A DNA stretch of 64,000 bases, taken from the NCBI GenBank assembly GCA_041946875.1, contig JBHGBG010000001.1:10996-74995 (forward strand), written 5' to 3'. The notes beneath the pieces were generated by a model, which saw nothing but the letters and a program-made list of their open reading frames with translations, was not told where the DNA came from and made no database searches. The translations under genes and the position numbers were made by a program. The DNA is from Candidatus Bathyarchaeia archaeon (GTDB lineage Archaea; Thermoproteota; Bathyarchaeia; Bathyarchaeales; Bathycorpusculaceae). This document shows, one piece after another, positions 5,269 to 56,509 of this stretch; position 1 is the stretch's first letter; every line of letters starts with the position of its first letter.

Positions 5269-6267
5269 ATGGCACTCAAATTTGGAATTGAATTCGTTCC
5301 AAAAGACCCCTACTGGAAACTAGCTGCGTACGCGATTCAAGCTGAGAACCGCGGGTTCAGCAACCTCTGGGTGACCGACCACTACGGCAACCGCAACGTC
5401 TACGTCACTCTAGCAGCCGCGGCCATGTACACGAATAAGATTACGTTCGGCACGGGCGTAACCAACCCCTGGATGGTCAACCCAGTCATAACCGCACAGG
5501 CTATCGCCACGCTGAACGAGCTGGCGCCAGGCAGAGTGGTTCTGGGCATGGGCGCCGGCGACAAGACTACTCTTGAAGCGGTTGGCGTGGAAATGGGTAA
5601 GCCACTCGCCGCCGTAAAAGAAGCCATAGAATTGTTCCGCAAATTGACCGCGGGCGAAACCGTGGCTTATCAGGGCGAAGTGTTCAAGACTGCGGGCGCC
5701 AAATTCAACTTCAAGACGAAGAACAAGATTCCCGTCTACGTCGGCGCTCAAGGTCCAAAGATGCTGGAGATGGCTGGAAAAATCGGGGACGGCGTCTTGG
5801 TCAACGCAAGCCATCCGAGCGACATAGGCTACGCCGTCAAAATGGCCGGCGAAGGCATGAAGCAAGCAGGTAAATCGGCAGCGGACGTGGACATCGCGGC
5901 GTACACCTCGTTCAGTATAAACGAGGACCCGAAGAAAGCCGTGAAAGCCGCCTTGCCAGTTGTCGCCTTCATCGTTGCGGGAAGCCCACCGCCCGTCCTC
6001 GAGAAGCACGGAATCAGCCCGGGAAAAGCTGACGAAATCCGCGCAGCCCTCAAGGTCGGCGATTTCCCGAAAGCATTGGGCGCGGTTACTCCCGAGATGA
6101 TAAACGCCTTCTCCATCAGCGGCACGCCCGACGTTTGCATCGAGAAAATCACGGAGCTGAAGAAAATCGGCATCAGCCAATTCGTCGTCGGCTCGCCCAT
6201 AGGCACGAACGTCAAAGCCGCCATAGACCTCATCGGCGCGAAGATTATTCCGCACTTCAAGGAGTAA
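5269..6267 (+). CDS. mer: F420-dependent 5,10-methylenetetrahydromethanopterin reductase (Mer), LLM-class oxidoreductase
   Basis: GGAGG ribosome-binding site upstream. Near full-length resemblance to Mer: KFGIEFVP, VTDHY.NR, GTGVTNP, GMGAGDK, YVGAQGPKMLEMAG, VAFIVAGSPP, FSISGTPD. Confidence 0.85.
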   Translation: MALKFGIEFVPKDPYWKLAAYAIQAENRGFSNLWVTDHYGNRNVYVTLAAAAMYTNKITFGTGVTNPWMVNPVITAQAIATLNELAPGRVVLGMGAGDKTTLEAVGVEMGKPLAAVKEAIELFRKLTAGETVAYQGEVFKTAGAKFNFKTKNKIPVYVGAQGPKMLEMAGKIGDGVLVNASHPSDIGYAVKMAGEGMKQAGKSAADVDIAAYTSFSINEDPKKAVKAALPVVAFIVAGSPPPVLEKHGISPGKADEIRAALKVGDFPKALGAVTPEMINAFSISGTPDVCIEKITELKKIGISQFVVGSPIGTNVKAAIDLIGAKIIPHFKE

Positions 6268-10683: not shown

Positions 10684-11748
10684 TTAGCCGATTAGTCTTC
10701 TGATGATGGGAATTTTCTTCAGAAGAATGACGATTCCAAGCGTGATGAAGAAGGTTATAGCGGTGATTAGGGGAATTTCGAGAACTGGGTCCATCGTGGC
10801 GAGGCTGATTTGGAATCCGAGGTAACCTTTCTGCAGTGTCTCCATGACCATGACGTGCATCAGGTAGATGGGCAGCGTGTATTGGCTAATCAGGTGAAGC
10901 AGTCGGTTTGCGCGTGGAAGGCTGATGTTCAGCTGGGCTGAGGAGACTTTGTTGAGCAGCAGAAACATGGCAACTGATGTTAGAATCACGTTGGCGCTTG
11001 AGGCATCGTAAAAGAACTGGCCGACACGTTCTCCGATCGTGCCCGTCACGACGTAGGTTGCGAGTATCGTTAGCACGTATCCTGAAAAGACCAAAATGTA
11101 CAGGGTTAAGGTGCGCCACTGCATTCGTTGTATGTATGCGCCGAGGAGGAAGTAGCCGAGCCATCCTGTCATTATGAAGACACCGCCGTTTAGGCTGTAG
11201 GGCGTGAGCAGGCTTATGAGAGGCACGAGAGCCGTACCTGTGAACCACAGCAGCAGGAAGTATCGGATGAGTTTCCAGTCTGCATAACCGACAAGTATCC
11301 GCAGCAGTGGAGCGATTAGGTAGAGTCCGACGAGTATGTAGAGGAACCAGAAGTGGTTGTATGGACCCATGAGTATGCCCTGCAAGATTGAAGACGAAGT
11401 CAGCGTCTCGTGGTTGACGAAGGCTCGCCACGCGAAGTATGCAGCTCCCCAAAAAACGAAGGGCAGGGCGATTCGGTTTAGCCGTTTCTTGAAGTACACG
11501 CCGAGGGGTTCATTGCTTTTGCTCGGTTGAAGCAACAACGCACCAGTCAGCATCACGAACAATGGGACGCAGGGTCTAGCTATGGAGTCGTAGATGTTCA
11601 CCGACCACCAAGAGGAAACGCCAGCAGGAGACATCAGGTCGGCGATTTGATACGGCTCTACCGCTGCGTGGAGCAGGATAACAAGTATGATGGCTACTGT
11701 GCGGATGAGGTCAACGGGTAGAGAGATGTCCCCAGCCTTTGGGTCCAA
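10684..11748 (-). CDS. Acyltransferase family 3 membrane protein
   Basis: About 10 TM segments. The N-terminus DLIRTVAIILVILLHA is typical of the acyltransferase_3 family. Confidence 0.7.
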   Translation of the reverse strand: MDPKAGDISLPVDLIRTVAIILVILLHAAVEPYQIADLMSPAGVSSWWSVNIYDSIARPCVPLFVMLTGALLLQPSKSNEPLGVYFKKRLNRIALPFVFWGAAYFAWRAFVNHETLTSSSILQGILMGPYNHFWFLYILVGLYLIAPLLRILVGYADWKLIRYFLLLWFTGTALVPLISLLTPYSLNGGVFIMTGWLGYFLLGAYIQRMQWRTLTLYILVFSGYVLTILATYVVTGTIGERVGQFFYDASSANVILTSVAMFLLLNKVSSAQLNISLPRANRLLHLISQYTLPIYLMHVMVMETLQKGYLGFQISLATMDPVLEIPLITAITFFITLGIVILLKKIPIIRRLIG

Positions 11749-11879
11749 ATTCCTGCCCCTTCATCGGACACATTTCTCTGGGCACGGATTTGTTAATAAG
11801 ACTTTAGCATAAAACCTGAAACCGGTTGGACTTTCGAGAAAAGGACAGTTTTGACTCTCAGAAAAGAAGAAAGGTTTGC

Positions 11880-12077
11880 TTTGTGTTTGAGCATGTTCTC
11901 AAGCGTCGGGCGCAGTTTCGCGTTCTCCGCCTGAATCTTCGCCTTGCCCAGCGCCTTCATGTCCGCGTCGATTTCCTTGATGACCTCAGCGCAGTAAACG
12001 TCTTCAGCCTTGGATACACATTCCGCGCCAAACCGCTGTTTACTCATACACGGCTTGAGGGAGTGTTCGAAGAACAT
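11880..12077 (-). pseudogene. Orphan 3'-terminal fragment of an hdrA/mvhD paralogue
   Basis: MSKQRFGAECVSKAEDVYCAEVIKEIDADMKALGKAKIQAENAKLRPTLENMLKHK aligns with the last ~57 aa of the intact HdrA-MvhD (MSEQRFRVEYVSAAEGIHYAEVIREIDADMKALGNDKIKAENAKLKPILENMLKPKK). Nothing upstream of it is HdrA-like. Confidence 0.55.
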
Positions 12078-12136
12078 AAAAGAAGCTGCGAAGTAAGTGT
12101 GAGCTAACGGCTAAGCCCGAAGCGGCTGGCGGCAAC

Positions 12137-12730
12137 TTGACCGACGACAGAGAACCCTTTGTTGTCCTTCGTGGAGTGTCAAAAAACTACTTCAATTTCC
12201 GCGCCTTAGACGACATTTCTTTTGAAATCAATGAAGGAGAAATCTTTGGCTACATAGGTCCAAACGGCGCGGGAAAAACCACGACCATGAAAATCTTGGT
12301 CGGACTCATCAGCGATTTCCAAGGCGAAGTGCTCCTTGGCGGGTACAGAGTGCCTGAGAAAAAAGAGGAAGTGCATAAACTGTTGGGTTACCTTCCTCAG
12401 AACGTGACGTTCCAAGAGTGGCGAACAGTGAACCACGCGCTGACGACCTTCGGAAGGCTTTCAGGTCTAACTGCGGAGCAGGTTGAAAGTCGCATCCCTG
12501 AAGTGCTGAATTTGGTTTCTTTGTCGGATGTTCGGCACAAGAAGATTTCTCAGCTGTCTGGGGGCATGACCCAGAAAGTGGGTTTAGCCCAAGCACTTCT
12601 CCATGAGCCGAAGCTTCTGGTTCTGGACGAACCGCTAGGTGGACTTGACCCGTTGATCCGCCACCAGTTCAAGGAAGTTGTCTCGGAGCTGGGCAAACGG
12701 GGCACCACTGTTCTGTTTTCTTCCCAGGGG
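12137..12730 (+). pseudogene. ABC transporter ATP-binding protein, 3'-truncated
   Basis: Walker A GPNGAGKTT, Q-loop, signature LSGGMTQK and Walker B LLVLDEP are present. Homology stops at TVLFSS, where the H-loop His should follow. The ORF tail to 12889 is simply antisense to the hdrA 3' end. There is no permease partner. Confidence 0.6.
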
Positions 12731-22588: not shown

Positions 22589-22695
22589 TGGCGCCCAGGC
22601 CGGGATTCGGACCCGGGTCCTGCGGGCGACAGCCGCATATACTGCTCCGGCAACATGAAAGAACTCATGTTGAGACCGGACTATACTACCTGGGC
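22589..22695 (-). tRNA. tRNA-Asp (anticodon GUC) with a 29-nt non-canonical intron in the D-loop; CCA encoded
   Basis: The minus strand reads GCCCAGG UA GUAU AGUCCGGUCU [CAACATGAGTTCTTTCATGTTGCCGGAGC] A GUAU A UGCGG CUGUCGC CCGCA GGAC CCGGG UCCGAAU CCCGG CCUGGGC G CCA. The cloverleaf closes only after the 29 nt at 22644-22672 are removed. The intron contains a perfect 8-bp hairpin (CAACATGA/TCATGTTG). Confidence 0.8.
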
Positions 22696-22721
22696 AGTTC
22701 GTTTCGTGCAGAATCTCTCTC

Positions 22722-23654
22722 TTATTCAGACATATAAAGATACTTTTTGCCCGTGATGCTTTCAAAGCGCTTTGCGTGTTTTTGATTGTGGAAACCAATA
22801 GATTTGGCGAATTTATCAACTTCCCTTCTTGCATACAGACCGCATTTTGGCGAAGGCGTGTCAGACCATTTACTAGGCTTGAAGCCAAGTTGCAGAAGAC
22901 CTCGTCTGTATGTTTCCTGAATTCCTTTAATCTTAGAGGTTAGTTCCAACTGGGGCATGCTTCGATTGGAAGATTTGGGGAAAACTGTTCCGTCGGTGTC
23001 AAACAATCCTCTTATGCATGACTTAAGATAAGAATTATTCTCAAAAATCCATGACGGTATGCCTACATTTTGCTTTTTCTTGTTCCCAGGCTTGAGTCCG
23101 TAGTATTCCAACGTAAATACTAAATTCTTGTCATTGACATAAAACATCACAGCCCTTGCAGTCTTAAGTCTGAAACTCTTGAGTGGTTGTCCTAGAACTC
23201 TTGAGAACAACGGAGAAACAAAGGACTCAAGATATTTCCAGTCGTCTTCACCTCCACATATCCTTGCGGCATATTGTCCAGACTCGGAAGAGTCATCAAG
23301 ATGGCCATCACCTAGAATCACACCAATGATTTCAGCCAAGTCACTAGATTTTTCGCAAAGAAGTTTAACCCTCTTTGGCTTTCCGCCTCCACCGGTGACA
23401 CCTCCTTTCTTTTGCCCCCAGTTGGACTTTACCAGTCCAACCACATCGCTGTCGCATTCTTCCTCGGAAATAGCACACAATTGTTTGAATGTTGAGAAGG
23501 AAAGCGTGCATTCCCCATTTCTTAATTCATGACAGAGGTAGTGTGGGTTAAGACCGAACTGCAATGCTAATTCCGCCCACGATAAGCCGGTTTTCGCTTT
23601 CGCTTTTTCAATTAACTTTTTTTGTTTTTCCCTGGGGAGTTTTACTCTTTGCAT
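22722..23654 (-). CDS. Free-standing double-motif LAGLIDADG homing endonuclease with N-terminal HTH
   Basis: Two LAGLIDADG motifs (LAEIIGVILGDGHL and LKSCIRGLFDTDGTV) and an N-terminal HTH-like segment (TGLSWAELALQFGLNPHYL). Confidence 0.8.
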   Translation of the reverse strand: MQRVKLPREKQKKLIEKAKAKTGLSWAELALQFGLNPHYLCHELRNGECTLSFSTFKQLCAISEEECDSDVVGLVKSNWGQKKGGVTGGGGKPKRVKLLCEKSSDLAEIIGVILGDGHLDDSSESGQYAARICGGEDDWKYLESFVSPLFSRVLGQPLKSFRLKTARAVMFYVNDKNLVFTLEYYGLKPGNKKKQNVGIPSWIFENNSYLKSCIRGLFDTDGTVFPKSSNRSMPQLELTSKIKGIQETYRRGLLQLGFKPSKWSDTPSPKCGLYARREVDKFAKSIGFHNQKHAKRFESITGKKYLYMSE

Positions 23655-23847
23655 TTAATTGTCATCTTTTATTAATTTATAGAAATAGCTACACTACTTA
23701 AACCTTACCACGTCCATTCCTCTAGATGGCTGCAAGCGATACTTCTATTTTGAACAGCCATTGCAATTAAGTAACCACGGACTGAAAGCTGCGTAATGCT
23801 TAAAAGGAAATGATACGGAAATACGAACTGTACAGGAGGCCAAAATA

Positions 23848-24498
23848 ATGGCAGACTATCCTTGGACGCTAAAAACCAGCGCACTTGAAGACTTTCTTAA
23901 GAAAATGTCCACAAGACCCGAACCTGCAAGGGTCACGCAAGAGTTTTTGAAATCTTTGGGTTATACGAGCAGCAACGATTGGCAGACGATACCTATCCTC
24001 AAGTTTTCAAAGTTTCTTGACGCAAACGGTAATCCGACTGAATTCTATAGGAACTTCAGAGACACGAGCAAAGCAAAAGCAGTTATGGCACAAGCAATAC
24101 GAGAGAGTTACTCGGAATTGTTTTTGGCTCATGCAGCTCCTTGGCAAGCGAGCGATGTGGACTTAGAGAATTTCTTTCGGACAAAAACAGGCAGAGGCGA
24201 AAGGATGTTACGTGCAACAGTTGGAACATTCAAGGAACTGTGCCAATTTGCGGATTTTGGAGCCGCACCAATCCAAATGCAGCCTTCTTTGCAACAGGCA
24301 AACGCAACAGTCACAACGTTATCAACAGCTAGTGCGCAACCCCCAACAATTCATTTGCCAATTACAAGAGAAGGTGGAGTAAATTTGAACGTTGACATAA
24401 GACTTGAACTGCCTGCCACACAGGACGCGAGCGTCTATGACAAAATCTTCGAGTCTCTCAAGAAACACCTTCTCAACCCAAACTCAAAAGCAGATTGA
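23848..24498 (+). CDS. DUF5343-like protein
   Basis: YPWTLKTSALEDFLKKM....P.RVTQEFLKSLGYTSSND...ILKFSKFLD..GNPTEFYRNFR.....KAVMAQAIRESYSELF matches my memory of the DUF5343 family pattern. The C-terminal tail is NVDIRLELPATQDASVYDKIFESLKKHL. Confidence 0.55.
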   Translation: MADYPWTLKTSALEDFLKKMSTRPEPARVTQEFLKSLGYTSSNDWQTIPILKFSKFLDANGNPTEFYRNFRDTSKAKAVMAQAIRESYSELFLAHAAPWQASDVDLENFFRTKTGRGERMLRATVGTFKELCQFADFGAAPIQMQPSLQQANATVTTLSTASAQPPTIHLPITREGGVNLNVDIRLELPATQDASVYDKIFESLKKHLLNPNSKAD

Positions 24499-25036
24499 GA
24501 ATATTCTAAGAGAAGTGTCCAGTTTCAAGACAGAAGCAGATGGTATCCTAATCAAGTTTAAGCCCGTCACTCCTCCGAAAGAGCCAGCGCAAATCCTTGA
24601 GAATCTGTTTTTGAGGTTTCATATCGTGGCAAAGCAACTTCAAAAGAGGCAAAGAAACCGACAACCACTTGAAATAAATGATGAATATGATGTCCAAGAT
24701 TTGTTACATGGGCTTCTCAAAATATTTTTTGATGACGTTAGACCTGAAGAGTACTGTCCGAGCTATGCTGGAACATCTCCTCGTGTTGATTTCTACCTCA
24801 AAAAGGAGCAAATTCTAGTTGAAGCGAAAATGGCAAGCACAAACCATCGTAAGAAGAAAGTTGCCGAGGAGCTAGTTCTAGACAAAGAGTATTATCGCAA
24901 GAAAGAAGGATGTCAAGCGATGTACGCGTTGGTTTACGAGCCTGAAGAAGTGATATCAAATCCCCGTGGTTTTGAAAGCGATTTATGTGAAAAGAGAGAA
25001 AACTTCGAAGCAAGGTTTTTTGTGGTTTCAAAGTAG
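24437..25036 (+). CDS. PD-(D/E)XK-like nuclease-fold protein (start uncertain)
   Basis: DEYDVQDLLHGLL...RPEE...SPRVDFYLKKEQILVEAKM gives a D...(D/E)xK arrangement. The ORF overlaps the upstream gene. Possible starts are ATG 24404 or 24437, or GTG near 24515. Confidence 0.5.
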   Translation: MTKSSSLSRNTFSTQTQKQIENILREVSSFKTEADGILIKFKPVTPPKEPAQILENLFLRFHIVAKQLQKRQRNRQPLEINDEYDVQDLLHGLLKIFFDDVRPEEYCPSYAGTSPRVDFYLKKEQILVEAKMASTNHRKKKVAEELVLDKEYYRKKEGCQAMYALVYEPEEVISNPRGFESDLCEKRENFEARFFVVSK

Positions 25037-25055
25037 TGAAAAACGGTAGTCGCTT

Positions 25056-25088
25056 GCATAATACTAGACCGGACTATACTACCTGGGC
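25056..25088 (-). repeat. Partial, intron-less tRNA-Asp 5' fragment (distal att-like repeat)
   Basis: The minus strand reads GCCCAGGTAGTATAGTCCGGTCT-AGTATTATGC. This is exon 1 joined directly to an exon-2-like sequence (spliced tRNA: ...GGTCT-AGTATATGC). Confidence 0.7.
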
Positions 25089-28732: not shown

Positions 28733-29017
28733 AAGTGCGCCATCGGTTTGCCATCTGCATTGGGCTTTCTCAGAATGGCCCCAGAAAAGGCTGAGGATTC
28801 CTCTCTGGCTCTCACCTCCCGGCAAGCTCATGCAGTTTCACCTGCCGAAAACTGCAGAAGGCTGTGCCTGAAGAACCCTCACGAAATTTAGAAATTTACC
28901 AATTCACAGATTTTTTAACAAGACAAATTTCAGAAAAAAGGATGCTTGCAAGACTGCAAATCTGACTTTTTTGGACCCACACAATAGCATATCATCTTTG
29001 CTTGAATTCTGTCGAGT

Positions 29018-29704
29018 CTATCCTTGGGCTTCTTCCGTATACAATCGAACTTTCACTTTCGCTGGTACTCTTCCTCGGTTCTCCATAATCAGATACCATG
29101 ACCCTTTTCGCGGTGTCACGTAGTCTATTTCGGTTTCTAAAACTCCTTCGTTGCAATCTTCAGATTCGAAATCCCTGTTACCTGTCCAATCTTCGAAGTT
29201 TAACCAATCCACAAAATAGACATCAATAGGATTGTCTGAGACTATTTTTCCTTTCAGGTGGTCATCTTTCATTAGTCTAAACTCGTAGGAATAGCCGTCA
29301 GATGGTTTCACGACGATTGTTTCTTTACGAATAAATGCTTTCTTTTCTGCTTGGCTGCTCTGTGGGTGTTCTTCTTTTTTTGAAGCTACAGTAATACTGA
29401 CCTTTGATTGATCATGTGCCATTACTTGAATCCCAGAGGATTTTTTCTGTATTTGTTTGTTATGCGAATCCGAACTATCTTCGTCTTTCCCAATGTTCTT
29501 GAAAAACCGGACGGCAATTTCCCCTATTGAATCTGGTTTCAATAAACACCCGGCTCCCAGTCCGCCAACAAAAATAGCTAGGACCCACATCACTACAGAG
29601 GTTAGGTTTAACCCCATGCTGATCGCGGAAACCAAGAATATTGGAAAAGCAATCATTAAACAAGTCAAACCAGTGACGTAACTATCTCTTCTTTTCTTGT
29701 CCAT
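29018..29704 (-). CDS. Hypothetical membrane-anchored protein (two N-terminal TM helices plus a soluble C-terminal domain)
   Basis: Low-GC ORF. The C-terminal segment VYFVDWLNFEDWTGNRDFE...PRKGSWYLIMENRG...KVKVRL loosely recalls the DUF1883 pattern; this is a weak call from memory only. Confidence 0.45.
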   Translation of the reverse strand: MDKKRRDSYVTGLTCLMIAFPIFLVSAISMGLNLTSVVMWVLAIFVGGLGAGCLLKPDSIGEIAVRFFKNIGKDEDSSDSHNKQIQKKSSGIQVMAHDQSKVSITVASKKEEHPQSSQAEKKAFIRKETIVVKPSDGYSYEFRLMKDDHLKGKIVSDNPIDVYFVDWLNFEDWTGNRDFESEDCNEGVLETEIDYVTPRKGSWYLIMENRGRVPAKVKVRLYTEEAQG

Positions 29705-29817
29705 GCATATTCAATTAACATAGGTTGCCTATTTCTTTTGCTCTTCAAAGATAAGACTGAGACAATCCGAATTGTTCACAAAGTCTTAAATCTACTAAGC
29801 GTAGAATAGCCTGAATT

Positions 29818-30708
29818 ATGATGAAATATTCCACCAGAAGGTTATCTTTGCTTATCGTATTCATAACCTTAATAGTGATCACATTTGTTGTTGGCTCTCC
29901 AATTGAAAAAGTGCATTCAGCTTCGTTTAGAATAGCGAGCGGAGAAGTCGAGTTTCAGGATATAGATACTTCTTCAGGAATGGTGTTGCTCCATTTCGTT
30001 TTCGATGAACAAACAGGTTCGGATGACTATAGAGACCGCTCGATGAGTTGGATAATATGGGAATATGGCAAATCGGGAGGTTTCGTATCAACTCCAATAG
30101 GTCCTGCTGACCCTGATTGGAAGTTAATTGGGACGAACAACGACACTAGTTGGAAATGGAGACTTGAGAAAACATTGTGGGCTAACTATCACCACAGTGG
30201 CTTCTTTCCCCTTGAACAGTTTAAGGTAAGTTTCTATGTCTGCTCAAATGAAAGCCGTGGCTTCGAAGTCAGAAGTCTTATTCCTAATTCATTTCCTTCA
30301 ATATTCCAAACGGGGGTAGTTCCTGAGGAAGTTCCTCATAGTTTCAAGTTTGAAGGAGTCCCAGAGCAAATTAGAGTCGATATTTCTTTCGGTCCAGATA
30401 GTATCTCTTCTCTGATAGGAGTAATGCTTTACGTTCTCTTTGGTGTACTCATCGTTCTTTGGGGAGTGCTATTTCAAAGGAGAAGAAGCACTAAACTTGA
30501 ACATTCAATTATGATAACGTCAAGTGTTTTGGTTTTTCTACCCATACTAGTGTTTACCTTTAGAACGTCCATCGCTCCGAAATACCTGATGCCGATTGAC
30601 ATACTGGGATTCTCCGTGATGTTGGTCTTTGGGATTCTGCTCATCTACGAGTTCTACGCAAAAACGAGAACCCCCAGAATGAACTTCGATCCTGGACTAT
30701 ACGATTGA
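29818..30708 (+). CDS. Hypothetical membrane protein (signal anchor, extracytoplasmic domain, three C-terminal TM helices)
   Basis: Low-GC ORF transcribed divergently from 29018..29704. No motif recognised. Confidence 0.45.
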   Translation: MMKYSTRRLSLLIVFITLIVITFVVGSPIEKVHSASFRIASGEVEFQDIDTSSGMVLLHFVFDEQTGSDDYRDRSMSWIIWEYGKSGGFVSTPIGPADPDWKLIGTNNDTSWKWRLEKTLWANYHHSGFFPLEQFKVSFYVCSNESRGFEVRSLIPNSFPSIFQTGVVPEEVPHSFKFEGVPEQIRVDISFGPDSISSLIGVMLYVLFGVLIVLWGVLFQRRRSTKLEHSIMITSSVLVFLPILVFTFRTSIAPKYLMPIDILGFSVMLVFGILLIYEFYAKTRTPRMNFDPGLYD

Positions 30709-30811
30709 ACAGAAATGACAACAGTCTGTGCGCGGCAGACGGAATCTTTGCAGACAAGAATAGAAAACAGATAGCAACGAATTGTCACTTTAGCTGATTT
30801 CATTTCGCTAA

Positions 30812-56407: not shown

Positions 56408-56509
56408 TGGTGGGCCCGGGGAGATTCGGACTCCCGACCAACAGGTCTCTCAGTGCCCTAATAGGCATCTTATGAGCCTGGCGCTCTAACCTAGCTGAGC
56501 TACGGGCCC
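56408..56509 (-). tRNA. tRNA with anticodon CAU (elongator Met or Ile2) and a 24-nt intron at the canonical 37/38 position; CCA encoded
   Basis: The minus strand reads GGGCCCG UA GCUC AGCUAGGUUA GAGC G CCAGG CUCAUA[AGATGCCTATTAGGGCACTGAGAG]A CCUGU UGGUC GGGAG UCCGAAU CUCCC CGGGCCC A CCA. The G1:C72 pair argues against an initiator tRNA. Confidence 0.8.

Follow-up and report, generated by a model that had tools for sequence, protein, structure and literature searches.

The 64,000-nucleotide stretch of archaeal DNA analysed here (contig JBHGBG010000001.1 of a Candidatus Bathyarchaeia archaeon, positions 10,996 to 74,995 of the forward strand; "the window" in what follows) carries two co-directional, overlapping genes on a small islet at a tRNA-Asp gene. 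The upstream open reading frame (ORF1) encodes a DUF5343 protein that ends in a conserved tail, and the downstream one (ORF2) a nuclease of the PD-(D/E)xK type whose start codon lies within the codons of that tail. That the pair is real, conserved and mobile is well supported. We favour, at a probability of about 0.6, a reading where the pair is a mobile two-gene conflict module that combines a sensor or regulator with a nuclease, serving either in abortive-infection-style defence or in a manner resembling toxin-antitoxin (TA) systems; in the former case it would presumably act against viruses.

Related loci were retrieved by means of the YDKIF pattern of the ORF1 tail (4 from species-representative genomes and 80 from metagenomes), and several more by exact-protein look-up; 74 were distinct after deduplication. 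In 69 of 69 distinct loci with sufficient downstream sequence, a co-directional partner abuts or overlaps the tail-bearing gene, and these loci span protein identities down to ~25-45%. A first-pass annotation, made from the letters of the window alone, had proposed the two genes as a candidate conflict or defence cassette, and the co-occurrence that this presupposes is found throughout, with 36 of the partners belonging to the restriction endonuclease (REase) family REase_DpnII-MboI. Thirty-four of these share the N-terminus of ORF2, and 2 have a different one (Pfam E 1e-15 to 5e-21). The partner in 12 loci is a protein of ~190 aa, here called HEPN class 2, with weak Pfam HEPN matches and an invariant RNE(C/S)AHP that corresponds to the canonical HEPN motif Rx4H, and in 11 loci it is a HEPN protein of the Hypoth_Ymh/TIGR02391 type (Pfam E 7e-30; PADLOC PD-Lambda-3_B and Aga_HEPN also match). 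The remaining partners are cut by a contig end (5 loci) or are other or degenerate proteins (5 loci, one with a weak DUF4145 match).

Some loci depart from the common pattern. The partner of the DUF5343 protein in L046 (3316-3960) is a 214-aa protein without a family match, and that in L004 (1209-1724), of 171 aa, weakly matches the HEPN-like DUF4145 and is preceded by a divergent tail (…IDQIFASMGKHLYRR). The partner ORF is shortened to 73 aa in L047, L075 and L079 and to 88 aa in L072, and the tail-bearing upstream gene is split across two frames in some loci; copies of either kind are likely to be modules in decay. A locus from Rhizobiaceae (L008) was a chance match and was ignored.

ORF2 matches REase_DpnII-MboI (PF18742) with an E-value of 5.5e-46 and 156.3 bits (cut-off 27) over profile positions 2-147 of 150. 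There are 562 homologues; the closest and the typical ones are 199-201 aa long, with 100% coverage of the form starting at ATG 24437. Numbered from this ATG, residues E83, D85, Q87, D88, E104, D118, E129 and K131 are invariant in 31 homologues. The restriction-endonuclease signature had already been noticed in the first-pass annotation, and both motifs quoted there were found, the second (RVDFYLKKEQILVEAKM) downstream of DEYDVQD; judged by its sequence, ORF2 is equipped with a complete PD-(D/E)xK site, with the catalytic residues D118, E129 and K131 intact. The AlphaFold model has a predicted local distance difference test score (pLDDT) of 84, and of >90 in the nuclease core, where the elements follow each other in the order alpha-beta-beta-alpha-beta-alpha-beta. 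In front of the core the model places the helical region of ~70 aa that had also been anticipated (H14-41, H50-70), while residues 1-13 form a Ser-rich, disordered leader. The family profile matches one solved structure, that of the Argonaute-associated nuclease EcbAgaN (PDB 23wq; E 1e-7), and the PADLOC Aga_Helical-REase models match the core of ORF2 (E 9e-31). Its substrate is presumably DNA.

The assignment of ORF1 to DUF5343, made in the first-pass annotation, proved correct (PF17278, E 6.6e-37, 127.3 bits, cut-off 27), with residues 5-139 corresponding to profile positions 1-137 of 140. A second match, to PADLOC PDC-M34A (PDLC04589; E 2e-53), takes in the tail as well, residues 3-208 corresponding to positions 4-207 of 208. 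The AlphaFold model (pLDDT 81 overall) is well folded over residues 1-140 (pLDDT >90), with helices at 10-18, 31-36 and 42-53, strands at 57 and 63 and five further helices. Residues ~10-65 thus follow the order helix, helix, helix, hairpin, which may indicate a winged-helix-like arrangement. An alignment of 40 homologues reveals an invariant motif G38-x-x-S41-x-x-D44 (LGYTSSNDW) in this domain. The linker that follows differs in length and sequence among the homologues (model pLDDT <50 at residues 149-181). The tail, which had been quoted correctly, shows the strongest conservation within the family, with the consensus GGVxLNVNIRLELPATQDAxVYDKIFESLKKHLL. Two further relationships were considered and dropped: a weak match of DUF5343 to TAF10 in a profile search of PDB sequences (E 0.014), and a ribbon-helix-helix motif, of which the tail resembles the strand and first helix but for which there is no Pfam support.

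The two genes are joined in an unusual way. The ATG of ORF2 at 24437 is formed by the codons for Tyr197 and Asp198 of ORF1 (TAT GAC, read as tATGac), which belong to YDKIF, and the overlap of 62 nt follows from this position. The same arrangement recurs in all 51 distinct loci where the partner has no start of its own further downstream: the partner ATG lies inside the Tyr-Asp codons (TAT GAY), and the +1 frame is open through to the end of the upstream gene. These 51 include all 34 loci with an ORF2-type REase, and in 30 of them the embedded ATG is the sole canonical start. Overlaps of 47, 50, 53, 62 or 65 nt were observed, and these vary merely because the tail runs on for differing lengths past YDKIF. 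When synonymous codons were resampled with the codon usage of each locus, the combination of an ATG with an open +1 frame had a mean probability of 0.14 per locus; a formal p-value is not given, as the loci are phylogenetically non-independent. In the 18 loci where the partner has its own start, the +1 frame contains stops in 17 and Tyr is encoded by TAC in 12. The partner in L006 (MRQIRTILAEVQAFEEEAHAIL) has its start codon immediately after the upstream stop and retains the adaptor helix. The leader peptide MTKSSxxS…, which is disordered in the model, is missing from partners with their own start and so is probably a by-product of the overlap. A Shine-Dalgarno motif is not claimed for ORF2, as there is just a weak AGGA 12-16 nt upstream, which is imposed by the conserved Q/K/E-D codons.

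Such a long overlap, with ORF2 in the +1 frame of ORF1, might also suggest a single gene split by a frameshift, programmed +1 frameshifting, or a start of ORF2 at GTG 24515, the latter being used in the existing gene call for the contig (P0041, a 173-aa product). We give these possibilities almost no credence. A fused protein was not found, the tail being C-terminal in the 67 matches listed from the search described below; L006 and L029 have a gap and then a separate partner ATG; and a frameshift site would not need the ATG that is kept in 51 of 51 loci. GTG 24515 lies within the conserved adaptor helix, where it is not kept as a start in the homologues, and there is no other in-frame ATG, GTG or TTG between 24437 and this position. 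Among the options listed in the first-pass annotation (coupling, the GTG start or a frameshift in a fused gene), coupling through the internal ATG therefore stands and the other two fall; likewise, of the overlap given there as 62-95 nt with an ATG start, 62 nt is correct and 95 nt would require a TTG start. The long overlap is a conserved translational coupling of the effector to the upstream gene and does not stem from misannotation, a frameshift or the break-up of a fused gene. It amounts to a compact form of dual coding that serves gene coupling and has been conserved across the REase and the HEPN variants.

Exchange of parts is seen on both sides of this junction. The tail also occurs in a second protein family (256-261 aa in L007 at 5410-6183, L065, L067, L073, L077 and L091, and 297 aa in one case), whose conserved N-domain of ~190 residues (containing …NAGNPYDRLDLAKA…SSEFRMLITSSGQFGL…) matched nothing in Pfam, NCBIfam or PHROG. 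This family has only the last ~52 residues, the tail, in common with the DUF5343 proteins (hhalign probability 99.3, E 3e-20), and its genes all precede the same REase with the 62-nt overlap retained. By eye, its N-domain resembles two winged-helix-like units. On the effector side, REase and class-2 HEPN partners match each other only in their first 43 residues, which comprise the leader and the first helix (hhalign probability 96, E 3.7e-9), and the N-terminal positions of the REase hidden Markov model also match partners that are not REases; no shared N-terminal helix was detectable in the Ymh and DUF4145-like HEPN-type partners. The residue before YDKIF co-varies with the class of the partner across loci: it is V in 31 of 34 with an ORF2-type REase, I in 12 of 12 with HEPN class 2, A in 9 of 11 with Ymh, and Q in both loci where the REase has a different N-terminus. 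When 1.84 billion representative proteins were searched with the tail alone, 68 clusters emerged; the tail is C-terminal in all 67 matches listed with an aligned stretch, and none of them is a tail-effector fusion. The one further match, which was the top one (P0161, 2221 aa), comes without an aligned stretch and probably reflects composition.

Swapping on both sides, the tracking of a tail residue with the partner class and the absence of fusions together point to the tail and the first helix of the effector as matching interaction surfaces, a view that is based on sequence comparison. The proposal of the first-pass annotation, a sensor- or adaptor-like protein coupled to a nuclease on a mobile islet, is borne out and is strengthened by the exchange of effectors (REase or HEPN) and of N-domains. 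The two-sided modularity, the second sensor domain and the start codon embedded in the tail all appear to be previously undescribed.

On the reading that we favour, ORF1 would be the sensor or regulator, or an antitoxin, with the variable N-domain supplying specificity, and the toxic output would reside in the PD-(D/E)xK domain of ORF2, or in the HEPN domain of the sister systems. The tail of ORF1 may dock on the adaptor helix of ORF2 and so keep the nuclease inactive, until a trigger sensed via the N-domain releases or activates it; this trigger could be a viral component, or else the loss or shut-off of ORF1 synthesis. The nuclease would then cut DNA, and either the cell or the invader would be stopped. 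Because the ATG of ORF2 is embedded in the tail of ORF1, synthesis of the effector is tied to the ORF1 message, which probably keeps the effector from exceeding its partner in level. A more far-reaching proposal, which we put forward tentatively and would not bet on, is that the pair represents an uncharacterised family of conflict systems built on a portable "tail-helix handshake", with the effector start hard-wired into the Tyr-Asp codons of the tail and the effector output governed by how ribosomes move along the sensor gene. If so, this dependence could itself be a switch, tripped when something such as viral shut-off interferes with translation of the sensor. Sensors and effectors that swap around one tail-helix interface also provide a clear and testable hypothesis on a protein interaction.

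The islet itself shows how the pair may have reached its position. Its low GC content and its attachment to a tRNA gene had been noticed at the outset, and both were upheld: GC is 0.42-0.43 in the pair region and 0.54 on average in the window, and a tRNA-Asp(GUC) gene identified by Rfam is accompanied by an exact 23-nt direct repeat that brackets a 2.4-kb islet of three ORFs, encoding the LAGLIDADG-like, the DUF5343 and the REase protein (Table 1). The flank beside the outer repeat has its homologue upstream of the intact tRNA gene in L125, one of two related Bathyarchaeia contigs (L125 and L127) that were found via the neighbouring RecJ-like gene and compared by BLASTN. L125 has no islet, and its tRNA-Asp gene at the syntenic site adjoining a Pyridox_ox_2 gene is intact and free of insertions. 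L127 carries the duplicated 5' part of the tRNA gene together with a LAGLIDADG region homologous to that of the window, at 74.6% identity over 1,138 nt. Positions 11413-11445 of L127 match window positions 25089-25057, and 11494-12627 match 23701-22577, and between these matches there are 48 nt in L127 vs 1,355 nt (23702-25056) in the window. As the element in L127 lacks the pair, the pair is a discrete cargo that a LAGLIDADG/tRNA-Asp element has acquired. The setting, in which a homing-endonuclease element sits in a tRNA gene and carries the pair, is unusual and illustrates how such modules travel.

Several observations concern this element and its target. It is a tRNA-Asp insertion with duplication of the tRNA 5' part, found at the same site in both contigs (window 22696-23701; L127 11413-12627). 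Its LAGLIDADG-like ORF, which has an N-terminal helix-turn-helix (HTH) region, also matches intein-endonuclease regions in NCBIfam; that of L127 is just 174 aa long though the DNA homology extends further upstream, and it is possibly decayed. The tRNA gene at 22592-22695 was missed by ARAGORN and by a default-filter Rfam scan of the whole window. Directly after the repeat, its D-loop carries a 29-nt perfect hairpin insertion (CAACATGA…TCATGTTG), which also appears as a hairpin in the predicted fold; a similar one occurs in L127 and none in the same tRNA gene of L125. It could be a non-canonical intron or an insertion scar. Assembly depth is even across the islet (~13), and the reads otherwise showed unrelated abundant tRNA fragments. 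A short contig of depth 74 from the same metagenome joins the 3' part of the tRNA gene to the outer 5' copy via 18 other letters (window 22619 / 25060); it most likely represents an uninterrupted tRNA-Asp gene from relatives of higher abundance and should not be read as a sign of excision.

Table 1. Features of the islet and of the gene pair (positions in the window; aa, amino acids)
Feature	Position	Strand	Description
tRNA-Asp(GUC)	22592..22695	-	Rfam RF00005, 45.8 bits (shorter scans)
23-nt direct repeat, inner copy	22673..22695		first 23 nt of tRNA-Asp gene (minus strand); exact repeat
HTH + LAGLIDADG homing-endonuclease-like ORF	22722..23654	-	310 aa; Pfam LAGLIDADG_3 E 1e-9, PADLOC HEase
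Cargo module: pair and upstream region	23702..25056		1.35 kb (1,355 nt); GC 0.427 vs 0.543 in window
GGAGG Shine-Dalgarno-like motif	23835..23839	+	8 nt 5' of ORF1 ATG; read from sequence, putative function
ORF1	23848..24498	+	216 aa; DUF5343 protein: N-domain, disordered linker, conserved C-terminal tail
DUF5343 N-domain (aa 5-139)	23860..24264	+	Pfam stretch; model all-alpha with one beta-hairpin
Variable linker (aa ~140-173)	24265..24366	+	Pro/Thr/Gln-rich, predicted disordered; pLDDT 40-42
C-terminal tail REGGVNLNVDIRLELPATQDASVYDKIFESLKKHLLNPNSKAD	24367..24495	+	strand-like segment, then amphipathic helix; proposed effector docking module
ORF1/ORF2 overlap	24437..24498	+	62 nt, out of frame; ORF2 in +1 frame vs ORF1
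ORF2	24437..25036	+	199 aa; leader, helical adaptor, PD-(D/E)xK nuclease domain (REase_DpnII-MboI); frame open 24404-25036
N-terminal helical hairpin (aa 14-70)	24476..24646	+	H14-41, H50-59, H61-70 in model
First ORF2 helix QIENILREVSSFKTEADGIL	within 24476..24646	+	common to class-2 HEPN partners; proposed tail-binding adaptor
Nuclease core	24680..25024	+	E83/D85 in DEYDVQD, D118 in RVDF, E129-x-K131 in VEAKM
23-nt direct repeat, outer copy	25066..25088		displaced tRNA-Asp 5' part beside native upstream flank

The window also contains a second tRNA gene (56411-56509, minus strand) that at 99 nt is longer than standard and probably has an intron, and a second low-GC stretch (29000-30800, GC 0.39-0.44) with two divergent ORFs for predicted membrane proteins of 228 and 296 aa. 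This stretch adjoins the genes for S15 and the RecJ-like protein, where L125 and L127 carry large PQQ_2-like or unannotated genes. The RecJ-like protein is 78-79% identical to Candidatus Bathyarchaeia/Bathyarchaeota proteins, and its closest matches of all reach 83%. A single sequencing run, a soil metagenome, contained this DNA, and no RNA sequencing run was found to contain the sequence.

The association of the pair with mobile DNA is clear in other genomes too. In L092 and L093 it lies between two integrase-like genes, an integrase fragment is found downstream in the locus of P0124, and mobile-element genes (DUF3854, HTH_17) are near in L003. In L002 and L005, also from Bathyarchaeia, its upstream neighbour is a type I restriction-modification (R-M) operon, and the gene after it matches Phage_integrase weakly, below the threshold. 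A survey covered 140 neighbouring ORFs from 29 related loci, with the best 25 families considered per scan: among the families listed, integrases occur in 4 ORFs by Pfam and in 7 by the PADLOC recombinase-like model, an N6_N4 methyltransferase in 3, and there are two type II REases, one type I R-M system and no Argonaute family. The association with defence islands is real but modest, and the enrichment near defence genes, for which the first-pass annotation had proposed a check, is present without being strong. Neither DUF5343 nor the tail was found on IMG/VR contigs or GenBank phages, and DUF5343 was not found on PLSDB plasmids. Viral and proviral REase_DpnII-MboI genes do occur in IMG/VR (L094-L124), as single genes of 261-300 aa without a tail partner; the encoded proteins carry a different helical N-terminal domain of ~110 aa (phrog_29450, function unknown). 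Homologues on plasmids match the nuclease core alone, which is present on many enterobacterial conjugative plasmids.

The R-M genes near some homologues, and the naming of the Pfam family after the restriction enzymes DpnII and MboI, raise the question whether ORF2 might be a type II restriction endonuclease standing alone, or what is left of an R-M system, with ORF1 as its controller or specificity subunit. We regard this as very improbable. Pfam matches to a methyltransferase domain are absent from the three ORFs of the islet, and in most related loci no methyltransferase gene is adjacent to the pair. Proteins of the ORF1 type are also found with partners other than restriction enzymes, namely HEPN RNases, and in the model the nuclease consists of ~120 aa plus the adaptor, without an obvious DNA-recognition domain.

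Several points weigh against the interpretation as a conflict module. The collection of loci is biased to tail-bearing members by the pattern used for retrieval. Only ~4 of the surveyed loci have R-M genes and 4-7 have integrases among the families listed, the rest of the neighbours being housekeeping genes, and in L089 the pair is found among genes of methylamine metabolism. The matches of ORF2 to nuclease folds in Foldseek, the best of them to the PD-(D/E)xK nucleases Can2, R.BspD6I and EcoO109I (E 0.05-0.5) and with Card1 within E 0.05-1.2, are below significance. The DUF5343 domain gave no Foldseek match in the PDB below E 0.7, and as it has no significant structural relative its role in sensing is a guess. 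Finally, PDC-M34B models matched neither ORF2 nor 14 partner proteins from related loci, whatever the class, at E up to 1.

A classical type II TA module that stabilises the islet by addiction is an alternative that overlaps with our reading and differs from it mainly in the biological role. ORF1 would then be the antitoxin, with a DNA-binding, autoregulatory N-domain and a tail that would fold onto the toxin and neutralise it, and ORF2 the nuclease toxin. We think this possible, if on the unlikely side. As in such modules, two small co-directional genes are translationally linked, the antitoxin-like one coming first with a strong Shine-Dalgarno motif and the toxin start lying inside it, and they are located on mobile elements. 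Many type II antitoxins are laid out like ORF1, with an N-domain and, after a disordered linker, a short C-terminal element that is conserved. The interchange of HEPN RNases with PD-(D/E)xK nucleases resembles the mix-and-match of toxins that is typical of TA systems, and the pair is found on its own between housekeeping genes and on small mobile islets, not mainly in defence islands. Against this, ORF1 has neither a sequence nor a fold match to known antitoxin families, a DNA-binding fold of DUF5343 was not confirmed in the search of PDB folds, and the ORF1 family has been picked up embedded in defence systems, and in L005 it adjoins a type I R-M system. The N-domains, of 140-190 aa and from two unrelated families, are bigger and more varied than the typical DNA-binding domain of an antitoxin and therefore fit sensing better than autoregulation. 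To our knowledge, a long out-of-frame overlap with the start codon in a conserved motif is not a described feature of TA systems.

Returning to the pair as a conflict module with a sensor or regulator, parts of it can be recognised in several known systems. Can2 and Card1, ancillary nucleases of type III CRISPR systems, are the best but weak structural neighbours of the ORF2 core (Foldseek E 0.05-0.06, below significance) and likewise place a PD-(D/E)xK nuclease under the control of a sensor module. In their case, however, cyclic oligoadenylate is bound by a fused CARF domain that serves as the sensor, and ORF2 has no CARF domain. The likeness to PD-Lambda-3 is confined to sister loci, where the Ymh partners match PD-Lambda-3_B in its C-terminal Ymh/HEPN part (E 1e-15), whereas the effector in the window is a REase of DNase type and the A components are unrelated. 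Effectors associated with Argonaute proteins belong to the same families, as the ORF2 core resembles Aga_Helical-REase and EcbAgaN, with a helical region preceding the nuclease, and the Ymh-type partners match Aga_HEPN. They differ in that the pair has no Argonaute gene, none of the three ORFs of the islet giving an Argonaute match in Pfam, that the match comprises the core only and not the adaptor, and that the upstream partner is a DUF5343-tail protein. A literature search on DpnII-MboI and on AgaN with prokaryotic Argonautes (pAgo) found nothing useful.

The closest counterpart is PDC-M34. Should the pair be an active conflict module, this would give a function to DUF5343, define a new effector variant of this candidate and provide a defence or TA system for Bathyarchaeia, in which we know of almost no characterised immunity. 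The view in the first-pass annotation that no named system has this composition needs to be amended, since the ORF1 family corresponds to PDC-M34A of PADLOC-DB; it stands with regard to ORF2, which has no match to PDC-M34B. A literature search found no main-text mention of DUF5343, PF17278 or PDC-M34. The PDC set comprises 145 phage-defence candidates that were chosen for their embedding in BREX, DISARM or type I R-M loci, and PDC-M34 is a two-gene cassette, FAM_01148>>FAM_01657, with 97 instances (Payne et al., bioRxiv 10.1101/2024.01.29.577857). The pair in the window is also a two-gene cassette, its ORF1 matches component A end to end, and the homologous pair in L002 and L005 lies beside a type I R-M system; it differs in not being embedded in a defence system, and PDC-M34 is itself a candidate without a published mechanism. 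As ORF2 lacks a match to PDC-M34B, its effector is of a different kind, and the pair is an additional effector variant of a candidate family that had already been flagged.

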